IMG/VR virus record: IMGVR_UViG_2563366922_000008
Location: 1 to 37,816 of that record
Direction: 5' to 3' (one strand)
DNA from: a virus
Taxonomy: Duplodnaviria > Heunggongvirae > Uroviricota > Caudoviricetes
Length of the DNA: 37,816 bases
Part shown: piece by piece, positions 517-27,695 of the stretch
How positions within the stretch are numbered: the first letter of the stretch is position 1
How the letters are laid out: every line of letters begins with the position of its first letter
The notes under the pieces: generated by a model
The model's input: the letters and a program-made list of their open reading frames with translations, nothing else
Databases searched by the model: none
Told to the model about the DNA's origin: nothing
Position numbers and translations under genes: made by a program

Positions 517-1953
517 TTAAGTTAAACCAATTAATCCATGCCCGGTTGAAGCATGTAAGTCCTGAATTAATGCTGCAACTACCTTTGCTAAATCTTCGTG
601 AGTTATTGTTCCAGAGTTAAATGCTGCTCGGGATACGGTGCCGGTTGGCGATCCCCATCCCGTCCTCCTCTCTGAAATAACTTGATTGCCATTAAGTCGT
701 ATTCTTAAGTTGTTGAAGTTAGCCCAGTTCTCAGCCCTGTTGAAACTCAAATGTGTTGTATTTGCCGGGCCCGTTCCTACCGTAATTCGTTGATTGTCGC
801 CCATCAAAATTGCGCAGTTGTTTGAAAATCTAGCTTCAGAAAATGAAATTCCACTCCTAAAATAATTTGTTCTAAATCTAATGCCGTTTGCAGCTCCAGA
901 TGATAGAGATCCCTCAAGTCTGATGTATTCGCCATTACCTACCTCGGTTAGTTCCTCTGTTGGAGTGGAAATAGAATTACCTCTAAACAACATTCCTGTC
1001 CAGATATAACCATTTGGAGCTTCACTCCCTCTTCCGATGGTAATCATCTGTGTTACTGGATTGCTTTTATCCTGAGTTACACATACCAACCCTCTTACAG
1101 ATCCTTGCAGTGCATTCTCCATCCATCCTTTATCGGGACCTCGATTATTCAGATTAAATTCATGTGCAATAGTGCTAATCGCTCCATTCTGCACTGCATC
1201 TCCTAATACTGCACCATATGACCACCCCCCCCATGTTTCGGCTTGCGGATTTCTTGATTCTCCACGCATGTGGTGACCAATTGAATGCCCATTCCCTCCC
1301 TCATGCTTAGCAACACTTGTAGTTGTGCATGTATATGCACTTCCTGACACCTTGCGCAAAGAGTTATAAATTACCCCCTGATCCCATCGTTTGATGCCGT
1401 CATCCCTAGTTGCAGAACTAATTTTTTCCAGCCAAATAATGGGATCTGGAATTGGTGTTTCTGGTATGGAGAATCTCTGTCGTGTAGCATTTTTATATAT
1501 GATAGTTTCATTGTTATAAATATTGTCACCAGCTGCATCTGAACCAGTCCATCCTGAGCCAGCATAAAAATTCTTAAGTCCATCACCAGACTGTCCAGTC
1601 AAAACTACTCTTAACTGATCCGGGTCATACTTCAGCACATTTGGGAATTTGAACTGCTGTGCACCATACGCATCATAAACAGCCATAGAATGGCCTTGCT
1701 CAGTTACGAATTTGGCAATCTGTCCGTTATATACAGGGTAACCAGCGGCGTTAATGATGATTGGTTGCGAAACGGGAACATGAGAGCCGTCTTCGTTCTC
1801 TACATAAACCTGAATCTGGTTTTCAGGATTTACTGGGTCAGTGTCAATTTTACCGATATAAATCTTTCCATTAGCTACGGCTTTAAAAGAACGAGCCATA
1901 GTGAAGAGTTGCGAAGGCATGCTGACTACAACATTGGCTGTAATGTCTGTCAT
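517..1953 (-). CDS. Tailspike / tail fiber protein with P22 gp9-type N-terminal head-binding domain and a divergent receptor-binding region
   Basis: 478-aa ORF; N-terminus [11 protein letters not shown]...[33 protein letters not shown]...NVLKYDPDQ matches the P22 tailspike head-binding domain as I recall it; rest unlike the P22 endorhamnosidase; GGAG 8 nt upstream of ATG. Confidence 0.8.
1225..1232 (-). repeat. Homopolymeric G8 tract (C8 on plus strand) inside tailspike coding sequence
   Basis: Plus strand ...accaCCCCCCCCatg...; encodes W-G-G-W (tgg ggg ggg tgg) in the tailspike frame. Confidence 0.9.
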
Positions 1954-2099: not shown

Positions 2100-2351
2100 A
2101 TGGGAAGAGATGACCCGCAATTTAATCTGCGGCTACCTTACGAATTAAAGGAAAAACTAAAACAGCGAGCCAAATCCAATGGCCGCTCTCTTAATTCAGA
2201 ATTAGTTCAGATAGTTACTGATGCTGTATCAAAGCCATCCAAAATTTCAGGCTATCGAGACGATGCGGAACGCATCGCTGATGAGCAGTCCGAACTTGTT
2301 AAGAAGATGGTGTTTGATACGCTGAAGGATTTGTACAAAAAACCCACCTGA
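2100..2351 (+). CDS. mnt: Mnt repressor (ribbon-helix-helix, P22 immI-type)
   Basis: 83-aa ORF MGRDDPQFNLRLPYELKEKLKQRAKSNGRSLNSELVQIVTDAVSKPS...ADEQSELVKKMVFDTLKDLYKK, matching P22 Mnt in length and sequence as recalled. Confidence 0.85.
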   Translation: MGRDDPQFNLRLPYELKEKLKQRAKSNGRSLNSELVQIVTDAVSKPSKISGYRDDAERIADEQSELVKKMVFDTLKDLYKKPT

Positions 2352-2636: not shown

Positions 2637-2658
2637 AGCCGGATCACTCCGGCTTTTT
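2637..2658 (+). terminator. Rho-independent terminator (aagccgga-tcact-ccggctt + TTTTT) between convergent genes
   Basis: Perfect 7-bp stem with T5 run on plus strand directly after the 2451-2630 ORF; stop codon of the minus-strand gene lies inside the hairpin. Confidence 0.5.
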
Positions 2659-3009
2659 GATATGTCGCTCGCAGAACTCAACAAGCCTGCTCATTAAGTA
2701 GCAGTAAGTCTCGTTGGCTCTTCCTGGTTCAACATCAACACCGACCCTTGAGCAGATATCGAATGCCATGTGAGCGCACTCATGGGCAATAGTAGATAGT
2801 TTGCCATTGAACACGCCTATCACATGCAAAACACCATTCTCGCTACTCATTGTATGAGACGCTCCGTTGGCGTCCGAGTCATGCACGTCAACGCCAAGTT
2901 TTTGATGCAGGCGTTGCCATTCTGGAAAGTCTCTACAAAACACAATTGTACCGCTCTCAAAGAGCGGTACTAGCATCTTTGGTACGTTTCCAATGTTAAC
3001 TTTTTTCAT
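2644..3009 (-). CDS. Hypothetical 121-aa protein with HExxH motif (possible small zinc-metallopeptidase-like protein)
   Basis: ORF MKKVNIGNVPKMLVPLFESG...STIAHECAHMAFDICSRVG...; ATG at 3009 with AGGA 5 nt upstream; HECAH is a candidate zincin motif; no family assigned. Confidence 0.5.
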   Translation of the reverse strand: MKKVNIGNVPKMLVPLFESGTIVFCRDFPEWQRLHQKLGVDVHDSDANGASHTMSSENGVLHVIGVFNGKLSTIAHECAHMAFDICSRVGVDVEPGRANETYCYLMSRLVEFCERHIKKPE

Positions 3010-3043
3010 GGTATCCTGCGCAAAACTAAGGAGAGTTAATTAT

Positions 3044-3529
3044 ATGAAAAAATCACTGTTAATTATCCCGCTTCTGCTGGCTGGGTGCGCAAAAGTAAGC
3101 GACTATCAGGCAAGTTGCGAGCAACGCTATCCAAAGCTTAGCGATATGGCTAATTGCCTTGATGCCAGCTTGAAGAACGACTCTCGCATGGCATCAGCAC
3201 CAACACCTAAGCTGTATGTCCTTGCTGCGAAGATGCTCGGGCAAGGTGTCGATGAAGGCAAGATAAGTGACACACAGGCAAGACTTGAACTTCAGAATCT
3301 TTATGTTCAATTACAAAGCCAAGAACAAGCCCAACAAATAGCGCAAAGCCAAGCATTCCAGCAGGCTTTATTGAATTATCAGGCTGTAAACACAATGCAA
3401 GCGATCGAGCAAAAAGCGCGCCAGCCTGTTATAACTCAACCTTACCCAACACGCGTTGACACATATACAAACTGCAATTCAGGATTTGGAAACACGGTAA
3501 CATGCAACAGTAGCAGTAATATCAGGTAG
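3044..3529 (+). CDS. Putative lipoprotein (161 aa) with Gln-rich helical region, in the P22 sieA slot
   Basis: ATG at 3044 with AAGGAGAG upstream; N-terminus MKKSLLIIPLLLAGCAK has signal peptide plus lipobox LAGC; Q-rich middle (QLQSQEQAQQIAQSQAFQQALLNYQ); Cys-containing C-terminus. Confidence 0.6.
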   Translation: MKKSLLIIPLLLAGCAKVSDYQASCEQRYPKLSDMANCLDASLKNDSRMASAPTPKLYVLAAKMLGQGVDEGKISDTQARLELQNLYVQLQSQEQAQQIAQSQAFQQALLNYQAVNTMQAIEQKARQPVITQPYPTRVDTYTNCNSGFGNTVTCNSSSNIR

Positions 3530-25500: not shown

Positions 25501-26877
25501 TCATACGTCAGCCCCTTGTGCATATCGCCTGCCACGCGCAGCAGGTGCATTTGATGCTGTGCAAATCTGTCTGGCTTCATCCTGGTCACATGCAACAAAG
25601 TGTCCGTTGCAGAACCGCTGGTAAACCGTACCAAGTGAGCCAAAACGGTTTTTCGTCACGATGATTTCAGCAAATGGCGCGGCGCTACTGCTCTCGTCAT
25701 ATACCGCTTCCCGATAGAGCATGATGATTGAGTCTGCGTCCTGCTCAATGCTTCCTGAATCACGCAAATCTGCGTTTGTCGGGCGTTTGTTTGGTCGCTT
25801 CTCAACATCGCGCGAAAGCTGACTCAGGGAGATAACAGGCGTTTTCAGGTCTTTCGCCATCGCCTTCAGGCTTCCGGAGATGTGAGCAATTGCGAGGTCG
25901 TTGCGGTCTGCTTTCGGCTTCTCAATCAGGCCAAGATAATCTGCCATGATGAGTGACAGGTTTGGATTTTCCTGTTTGTGCCGTTCTGCGATTGAGCGAA
26001 TTTCTTCGACCGATAACCGCGAGGCATCGACTACCCATACATCCAAATCTGCAAGCTGACTCATGCCGTTAGCAACACGTGCCCAGCCCTCGTCATCCAT
26101 CGATGCAGGATTTCGCAGTACGCTAACCGACATCCTCCCGGCGTTGGCAATGCTTCGCTCTGCAATCTGCAATGCGCTCATTTCCATTGAGAAAATCAAT
26201 ACCCCGCGCCGGACGTCAGAACCAGGAATAACGCGGCTTGCAACGCCTTCGGCAATCTTCAGCGCCAGTTCGGTTTTCCCCATACCAGGACGAGCAGCGA
26301 TTATCACAAGGTCTTCCGCGTTCATCCCTCCGGTGATGGCATCAAGTTCTTCGATTCCGGTCTTCAGGGTATCTGACTCTTCTCCGTTCCTCAGACGCCT
26401 GTCAAGCGTGTCAGTGTAGTCAGTGATGATTTCCCCTAACCGTACAGGTTTAACCTCGTCACGGGGCTTTCTGATGGCTGAGAGACGTTTTACAAGTTCA
26501 TCCATCGCCTGACTCGATGCGTCGATGGTTCCGCTTTGGATTGGTTCACGCATTTCATCCATGATTTCCAGCACCAGACGGCGGTGATAGTTATCCGCGA
26601 CCATTCCGGCATATCCCTTCAGGTTTGCGGCACTCGGGCAGTTTTTGCTGGTCATCAGGATTGACGTGAAATGCTCCTCTCCGCACTCCTCGGCAACCAT
26701 CAGCGCGTCGATTAGGTTTCTGTTTCGCGCCTGCTTGCGGATAACCTCGAAGGCTTTCCGGTAGAGCGGAATTGAAAACGCTTCCGGCTCCAGCGTTGCC
26801 AGAACGTCGCTGGCGGTTGGAGTTAATCCACCAATCAGCAGGCCACCGATAACGCTCGCTTCGATATCCTGTCTCAT
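25501..26877 (-). CDS. Replicative DNA helicase, DnaB-like (P22 gene 12-type)
   Basis: 458-aa ORF with Walker [10 protein letters not shown], DnaB-type motifs ([35 protein letters not shown]); start overlaps O-like gene stop. Confidence 0.9.
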
Positions 26878-27695
26878 GCAATCCCCCTGTCTGCAAACTT
26901 CCCTTCCCGAACTCCCGTTAACGAGTCTTCCCTCAGCAGGTAATCAAAATCGGCCGTCCAGCCCGTGTCGTTGTCTCCGAAGTAAAACGGCTTGGCCTGA
27001 TGCACAAACGCCCTGACATACGCTCTGAAACCGTCCACGTTTGGCGTTTTCAGTTGCGGGATGATTTTCTTCAGGCGGCGTTTGCGTTTCTCGTTGACCG
27101 CAACAGCGTGTGGCAGTCTGTCACCGACTTCGGCGTTGTAGGCGTTCAGGAAGGATTCGTAGTCGATTCGTTCTGCCTTGCGACGTTCAGGTTTAACCTG
27201 CCCATCGCCTCCCCCATTGGGGGGTAGGGGGGTATTTGTATTTATTGTCTTTTGTATATTGTCTTTTGTGTTTAGCTGACTTGGCTTATACCCATTAGCC
27301 GACTTGGCTAATGTTTTATTAGCTGTTTTAGCTAATGTTAAGCTGTCCTGGCTAATCCACTGAGAAACCACCTTGTTCACTCCGATTTTCACGCCATCAG
27401 CAATGAGGAATTTACGCTCGATAAGCTGGCGCTTGGCAGCGCAAACATGAGTGTGATGAATACCTGTCATGGCTGCTATCTGCGTGTTTGTGAGTCGATC
27501 CATCGGCTTATTGAATCCGTATGTCTTGCGCATGATAGCGAGCATCACCTTCAACTGCCGGACGGTTAAATCAGCCATCAGCAGACTGTCGGTAATCTCG
27601 TTAGCAACGCGCATGAAACCATCTTCGGTATCTGCCACGCGATGCTCCACGACCTCAAGTTGAGTCCTGTAATCAGCTAACTTAACGACGCCCAT
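26874..27695 (-). CDS. Replication initiator, lambda O-like / P22 gene 18-type
   Basis: 273-aa ORF with O-type N-terminal domain ([36 protein letters not shown]), Pro/Gly-rich linker encoded by the iteron region; AGGAG RBS. Confidence 0.8.
27236..27358 (-). repeat. Replication origin-like element inside the O-like gene: four ~19-bp iterons plus AT-rich tract
   Basis: Plus strand TTAGCTGACTTGGCTTATA / TTAGCCGACTTGGCTAATG / TTAGCTGTTTTAGCTAATG / TTAAGCTGTCCTGGCTAATCC at 27272-27358, preceded by tatttgtatttattgtcttttgtatattgtcttttgtg; arrangement as in ori-lambda. Confidence 0.55.

Follow-up and report, generated by a model that had tools for sequence, protein, structure and literature searches.

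Does a run of eight guanines in the gene for a phage receptor-binding protein act as a switch, or is it an accident of codon usage at which replication slips? This question is raised by the tailspike gene of a P22-like Escherichia coli prophage of the Caudoviricetes, IMG/VR record IMGVR_UViG_2563366922_000008, positions 1 to 37,816, a stretch to which we refer as the window. A preliminary description of the locus had proposed that the run (G8) could be a phase-variable switch or simply a hotspot of assembly and sequencing errors. We favour, with a probability of roughly 60%, a different reading: G8 results incidentally from the codons used for a conserved peptide motif and is a genuine replication-slippage hotspot that repeatedly inactivates the tailspike, without being maintained as a switch.

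An eight-G run in the tailspike reading frame

Direct reading of the window gives CCCCCCCC on the + strand at positions 1225-1232, i.e. G8 on the coding strand, and the codons encode W-G-G-W exactly as described before (Table 1). The only long open reading frame (ORF) spanning the tract is that of the 478-amino-acid tailspike. G8 is the sole homopolymer of eight or more bases in the window; other G/C runs reach at most 6, and among A/T runs none is longer than the two T7. By chance one would expect about 0.25 (first-order Markov model) to 0.6 (independent, identically distributed bases) G or C runs of at least 8 per window, so that the length of the run is unusual yet, taken alone, not statistically remarkable. 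Much the same holds for the codons. GGG accounts for 8 of the 53 glycine codons of the gene (15%), and given W-G-G-W the combination GGG GGG has a p of about 0.02, which is rare but unremarkable given the number of phage genes in existence.

Sequence matches to the Protein Data Bank (Sf6 gp14, P22 tailspike) are confined to residues 1-120, and the Pfam match covers residues 1-113. The tract, at residues 241-244, hence lies behind the P22 head-binding domain in the C-terminal receptor-binding part, as had been proposed. A change of the tract length by one base truncates the protein: the loss of one G leads to a product of 249 amino acids and the gain of one G to a product of 259 amino acids, and a G6 allele reaches the same stop as G9. 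Both the G7 and the G9 product retain the head-binding domain and lose the receptor-binding part beyond residue 243 together with the C-terminal tip. In this respect the locus resembles a contingency locus, the repeat lying inside the coding frame (codons 241-244) with its length switching the product.

When both shifted frames were read, they stopped after 6 and 16 codons, and no alternative C-terminus was present in either; the idea that another frame supplies one was therefore rejected. This also bears on programmed recoding, in which ribosomal frameshifting or transcriptional slippage on G8 would yield a set share of truncated tailspike. A homopolymer in the coding frame is the minimal requirement for such a process, and the truncated products would keep the head-binding domain. 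However, the short extensions carry no conserved sequence and the run is absent from relatives. Moreover, the sites at which transcription is known to slip in bacteria consist of long stretches of A or T, and G GGG GGG is not known as an efficient slippery heptamer with a stimulator. Programmed recoding is thus extremely improbable.

Table 1. Coordinates of the tailspike gene, the G8 tract and associated features in the window
Feature	Position	Strand	Basis or remark
Tailspike gene, 478 amino acids, intact	517..1953	-	ORF list; Pfam Head_binding; PHROGs tail spike families
N-terminal head-binding domain, residues 1-113	1615..1953	-	Pfam PF09008 Head_binding, E 3.6e-65
C-terminal receptor-binding module, residues 114-478, uncharacterised family	517..1614	-	Searches described in the text
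Codons TGG GGG GGG TGG, W241-G242-G243-W244	1222..1233	-	Start of the family's conserved [WF]GGW[SF]Y
G8 homopolymer (C8 on + strand)	1225..1232	-	Direct read; slippage-prone tract
TAG stop after loss of one G (G7 allele, 249-amino-acid product)	1203..1205	-	Frame read; product present in public assemblies
TAG stop after gain of one G (G9 allele, 259-amino-acid product; G6 reaches the same stop)	1175..1177	-	Product present in public assemblies
225-amino-acid C-terminal fragment ORF, GTG start at V254	517..1194	-	Called beside N-terminal fragments of 249/258/259/260 amino acids in Logan and ENA assemblies
Mnt/Arc repressor ORF	2100..2351		Adjoins tailspike; immI-type region

Tract lengths in public assemblies

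The predicted G7 and G9 products of five N-terminal variants were looked up as exact sequences among about 15 billion proteins. Three of these products exist exactly, and the DNA of the contigs agrees on the tract length: the 249-amino-acid product of G7 (SRR13993646, SRR30896469) and the products of 259 (ERR434442) and 260 amino acids (SRR25438559) of G9. Tract lengths were read from assembled contigs, and every variant belongs to an automated assembly, from Logan or of an ENA metagenome. A census of the 225-amino-acid fragment ORF, covering sequences of the window type and of a second type (L002/L003), returned 9 and 10 contigs, respectively. Together these comprise 16 tract variants (one G6, nine G7 and six G9), two contigs ending before the tract and one in-frame G8. 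Among the window-type contigs we found G7 in SRR13993646, SRR30896469, ERR15941344 and ERR15941359, G9 in ERR434442 and ERR15941352, and G6 in ERR15941361; one further contig ends before the tract, and one prophage remnant (L027/L039) carries the in-frame G8 behind a replaced 5' end. In the second type, G7 was present in ERZ28660696 and the identical SRR11412711, in ERR11260539, ERZ27235517 and SRR024128, and G9 in SRR13993433, SRR25438559 and ERR15567844.

Altogether G6, G7 and G9 alleles occur on about 17 public contigs, so that an invariant tract length, which the preliminary description had named as refuting evidence, is not seen in these assemblies, and the alleles yield exactly the truncated products that slippage at the tract had been predicted to give. 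Among the members listed, the gene was found at full length on 61 contigs or more. The out-of-frame share hence amounts to about one fifth of the public copies, always at the tract, an upper-bound estimate resting on the 15 of 166 cluster members that are listed with contig counts. As a control, the ten products that ±1 changes would give at five further runs (tailspike A6 and G5, gp16 A7 and G5, and C6 of the O-like gene) were looked up in the same way. They gave one match, on SRR30896469, a contig that also carries a deletion from A6 to A5. With a single match in ten control products, the excess of length variants is specific to G8.

Are these variants alleles or errors? If the tract were stable at G8, every G6, G7 and G9 would have to be a homopolymer error of the sequencing platform or of automated assembly. 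Consistent with this, all variants stem from automated assemblies, and G8 is found in all five complete genomes from RefSeq, in three IMG/VR contigs and in one metagenome contig from the Joint Genome Institute (JGI/ENA). As the Prokaryotic Genome Annotation Pipeline (PGAP) would hide frameshifted copies, the curated data at NCBI cannot confirm the variants. Three variant contigs carry further homopolymer deletions, and four tract lengths occur with 0 substitutions in one series of sequencing runs (ERR15941xxx). However, the G9 contig of SRR13993433 was found identical in 10 samples, and the same G7 allele, with 0 substitutions, is common to the ENA metagenome scaffold ERZ28660696 (L046) and the Logan assembly SRR11412711 (L048), i.e. 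to two assembly pipelines. Most variant contigs show no other indel over 4-10 kb, A7, T8 and several 6-mers included; ERR434442 is free of further indels for about 10 kb and SRR13993646 for 6.8 kb, which takes in the A7 run. G7 and G9 occur inside one project, which disfavours a systematic bias in one direction. In addition, assemblies based on k-mers reflect what most of the reads show, and it is rare for most Illumina-type reads to get the length of an 8-mer wrong. We therefore regard a purely technical origin as rather unlikely. Several variants, namely the G9 contig in 10 samples, the G7 allele recovered by two pipelines and those with clean flanks, are very probably real alleles. The error hotspot of the preliminary description thus accounts for some of the variation, as the three runs with other homopolymer indels indicate, and probably falls short as an explanation of all of it.

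The numbers of mutations point in the same direction. Over 6.8 kb, the window-type lineage shows about 5 substitutions as against 2 events at the tract, and this fits the ratio expected from mutation-accumulation data in E. coli (PMC8510543); the expected value, about one event at an 8-bp G.C run per substitution in a few kb, is our own estimate from that study and from what an abstract reports. In E. coli, indels become exponentially more frequent as runs lengthen, and no stronger chromosomal indel hotspots are known than 8-bp G.C runs; in lines defective in mismatch repair, four such runs took up 95 of the 117 indels that hit tRNA genes (PMC8510543). These runs, located within leuP, leuQ, leuV and leuT, resemble the tailspike tract in sequence type, length and host replication system. 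However, they lie in tRNA genes and were measured in mismatch-repair-defective lines.

Several observations weigh against slippage in the chromosome as the sole source of the variants. SRR30896469, ERR15567844 and SRR024128 contain further 1-base deletions in A, T or G runs of 3-6, and the variation is clearly in part technical in these three error-prone runs. Four contigs of the ERR15941xxx series (G9, G7, G7 and G6) differ solely at the tract, with 0 substitutions over 4.9-6.9 kb and G8 in sister runs such as ERR15941142, a pattern that exceeds the tract specificity predicted by ordinary chromosomal mutation. It could reflect a platform effect, a mutator host or an actively replicating phage; only 2-3 of the contigs of this series span the T8 and A7 runs, which leaves room for a length-dependent platform error. 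Finally, an out-of-frame share of about 20% is high and may mean that the off state is selected or that switching is frequent, which would speak for a contingency locus. At least 7 runs of the ERR15941xxx series carry the same prophage (L034, L037, L040, L028 and L044 among them), with 0 substitutions over up to 6.9 kb. A literature search for papers naming the variant sequencing runs found none.

The pattern in this series would be explained by a working contingency locus, with slippage toggling the tailspike at high frequency in populations of lysogens or of replicating phage: G6, G7, G8 and G9 would then be expected in prophages with no other difference over 5-7 kb. If so, the off state might benefit lysogens by the release of non-adsorbing particles, or by avoiding the action of the tailspike on a changed O-antigen, and the locus would be the first case in which a homopolymer phase-switches a receptor-binding protein in a P22-like phage whose host is proficient in mismatch repair. 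We give this possibility a slim chance.

Conservation of the peptide and origin of the run

G8 is confined to a clade of E. coli prophages with 97-100% identity, where GGG GGG was present in all of the at least ten in-frame copies examined, the RefSeq, IMG/VR and JGI/ENA sequences named above included. A flank-anchored DNA pattern scan of metagenomes added one further G8 copy and one chance match. In every relative outside this clade the run is interrupted by a synonymous change, from 94% amino acid identity on, and this is the second finding that the preliminary description had named as refuting its proposal. The closest of them (P0002, 94%) has GGA GGA; the P0005 clade, as well as P0006 and Kagunavirus LM02P1, have GGG GGA and hence an in-frame G7; GGT GGG or GGC GGG is found in relatives of the P0003/P0004 type, GGC GGT in P0007 and TTC GGC GGT in P0012. 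The amino acids behave differently. W244 is invariant in all alignments of the receptor-binding family (13-15 and 23 members), and G242 and G243 are conserved at 90% or more in the alignments of 13-15 members and below 90% in that of 23 members. The motif [WF]GGW[SF]Y is the most conserved part of the family and the sole stretch that could serve for a pattern search. The alignments thus indicate that the W-G-G-W peptide is under constraint, and that it is this peptide, not the DNA run, that is conserved.

This bears on the proposal of an evolved contingency locus, in which selection would keep G8 as a means of turning the tailspike on and off reversibly, a form of bet-hedging for the phage or the lysogen population. 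Several features would suit such a function. The tract sits in the gene of a receptor-binding protein, lengths of 6, 7, 8 and 9 occur among otherwise identical or near-identical prophages, gains and losses are similar in number, and off alleles are frequent, with about 17 contigs as compared to at least 61 in the on state. Precedents are found in Campylobacter phages, with their polyG tracts (Sorensen et al. 2021, cited in PMC10579305), and in T2/T4, for which mononucleotide contingency loci are reported (bioRxiv 10.1101/2025.10.21.683753). However, a tract maintained in diverged orthologues, as expected of a contingency locus, was not found: the run is broken in all relatives outside the clade, which by itself is too shallow to show maintenance, and conservation thus lends no support to an evolved phase-variable switch. 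The other frames offer no alternative product, a virion without tailspike has no evident benefit, and, with this late gene silent in lysogens, relaxed selection would account for the off alleles. E. coli is also proficient in mismatch repair. Repeats of this kind are, furthermore, under-represented (0.77x) in genes of the tail-fibre type (bioRxiv 10.1101/2025.10.21.683753). Taken together, an evolved switch seems distinctly improbable.

An incidental slippage hotspot, the reading that we prefer, might have arisen as follows. The receptor-binding domain would need W-G-G-W, and both glycines would have become GGG in the lineage of the E. coli prophage clade; one synonymous A-to-G change from GGG GGA, which is seen in two neighbouring clades, would be sufficient to create G8 together with the flanking TGG codons. 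The host replisome copies the prophage while the late genes are silent. As the tailspike is not expressed in the lysogen, slips of +1 or -1 would escape selection there, and, being unselected, they could accumulate until the phage must infect again. Such slips would leave the 249-amino-acid (G7) or 259-amino-acid (G9, G6) fragment, with the head-binding domain kept but the greater part of the receptor-binding domain lost, along with the trimer tip at the C-terminus. Upon induction, a frameshifted prophage would probably release spike-defective, non-adsorbing particles, and a second slip could restore the frame. Most variants would accordingly be real mutations that arose by slippage in the lysogen, neutral there and reversible.

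At the level of DNA slippage, the tract probably works like its closest functional precedents in phages. In Campylobacter phages (Fletchervirus), genes for receptor-binding proteins contain hypermutable polyG tracts (Sorensen et al. 2021, Cell Rep 35:109214, cited in PMC10579305 and PMC10877375). As in the window, a G homopolymer lies inside the gene and a change in its length shifts the frame and turns the protein off. In Fletchervirus, however, these tracts are, according to the citing papers, a recurrent conserved feature of the phage group, in a host without classical mismatch repair and with phenotypes shown, whereas the prophage has a single tract in one shallow clade of temperate coliphages, not kept in relatives. 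In T2/T4, ±1 frameshifts arise often and reversibly at mononucleotide repeats of at least 6 bases (Gomez, Barrick and Waters 2025, bioRxiv 10.1101/2025.10.21.683753). The T2/T4 loci are mostly A runs of lytic phages with their own polymerase, vary at about 3e-4 per repeat within populations and are tied to escape from defence systems. The tailspike tract, in contrast, consists of G, lies in a prophage that the host replisome copies, and is seen to vary between assemblies. Since the T2/T4 study finds repeats depleted in genes of the tail-fibre type, it fits the run being an accident and not a device. Bacterial contingency loci (Neisseria, Haemophilus, Campylobacter, Bordetella; PMC5084427, PMC1891110) likewise produce on/off alleles by slipped-strand mispairing at a coding homopolymer. 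However, they are maintained across strains, are usually longer and lie in genes for surface or modification functions, where both states are known to be selected.

If the variants are real, a single synonymous codon choice would be the dominant route of infectivity loss in this prophage family, with about one fifth of the public copies apparently knocked out at exactly this site. This bears on how the inducibility and transmissibility of such prophages are judged, and on typing or engineering with the receptor-binding domain, where recoding to GGA GGT would stabilise the gene. The locus might also serve as a natural test case for the claim that mononucleotide repeats are contingency loci of coliphages.

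The tailspike gene, its receptor-binding module and its surroundings

The exact 478-amino-acid protein of the window is present on 31 public contigs. The first ~340 bases of the gene show 86-93% DNA identity to its counterparts in HK620, Sf6, CUS-3 and further P22-like coliphages, after which the similarity ends. The window tailspike is thus like those of P22, Sf6, HK620 and CUS-3 in its N-terminal head-binding domain and genome position and unlike them in the receptor-binding part, where the module has no detectable similarity to any solved tailspike. Public contigs that match the window exactly carry, upstream, the genes gp16, gp20, gp7, needle, gp10, gp4 and coat (P22_gp16, Inj_translocase, P22_gp7). 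Such surroundings fit a P22-like late region with the tailspike as last gene, beside immI (mnt/arc) and the ejection-protein genes.

In the five complete E. coli genomes (L001-L005), RefSeq/PGAP labels the tailspike as a pseudogene ('incomplete; missing C-terminus') and annotates the head-binding part only. A frameshift at the tract was rejected as the cause, all five genomes having G8 and the intact 478-amino-acid ORF. The label looks like an annotation artefact that stems from the uncharacterised C-terminal domain. The tract hence also matters for annotation, where frameshifted or mis-called tailspikes are to be reckoned with and RefSeq already labels an intact gene as a pseudogene.

The receptor-binding module is rare: among 5.8 billion proteins, a single-sequence search found it in 14 clusters and a profile search in 23. 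For its central domain, neither sequence nor profile searches gave a match in Pfam or the Protein Data Bank. The profile of the family's C-terminus (profile positions 322-378), corresponding to the last ~57 amino acids (window 517-690, - strand), matches the tip of the P22 needle gp26 in the Protein Data Bank (5bu8, 4zkp, 2poh, 3c9i) with an E of about 1e-5, which suggests that tailspike and needle gp26 might have a trimerisation module in common. With regard to the trimeric right-handed beta-helix that typifies the receptor-binding or enzymatic domain of P22-like tailspikes, two distant family members match PF12708 (pectate-lyase-like) at the N-terminal edge, a match that the window protein does not have. 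AlphaFold2 models of the module from 13 and 23 sequences reached a mean predicted local distance difference test (pLDDT) score of 41.5 and 50.3, with 31-39 around W-G-G-W, too low for a fold search. The module is found behind three adaptors: the P22 Head_binding domain; Tail_spike_N (PF18668), carried by Kagunavirus LM02P1 and by a lambdoid prophage, there after TipJ; and a Phapecoctavirus tail spike (28% identity). No relative came up when the GTDB representative genomes were scanned for the C-terminal domain; as each species is represented there by a single genome, an E. coli prophage is unlikely to show.

GGA makes up 20 of the 46 glycine codons in the receptor-binding part (517-1614), as compared to 84 of 422 in the other genes checked, which suggests that this part is of different evolutionary origin than the rest of the prophage. 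One of the complete genomes (L005, E. coli 19KM1803) has a recombinant tailspike, of the window type through G8 and then of the P0006/Kagunavirus type. The crossover, at locus positions 2868-2900 (about window 1200-1235), lies inside the conserved stretch WGGWSYGAV.

Two further loci in the window deserve mention. Between the mnt-side region and gp16, an ORF of 178 amino acids (2993-3529, + strand) begins with a lipoprotein-type signal (MKKSLLIIPLLLAGC) and overlaps the start of a 121-amino-acid ORF on the opposite strand (2644..3009). It has no match in Pfam and may be a candidate for a moron or a superinfection-exclusion gene. Within the lambda O-like replication gene (26874..27695, - strand; Pfam Phage_rep_O), the coding strand at 27211-27232 reads C6-TA-C6-AAT-G5. 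This partly palindromic cluster contains the next longest G/C runs of the window and may be an origin iteron.

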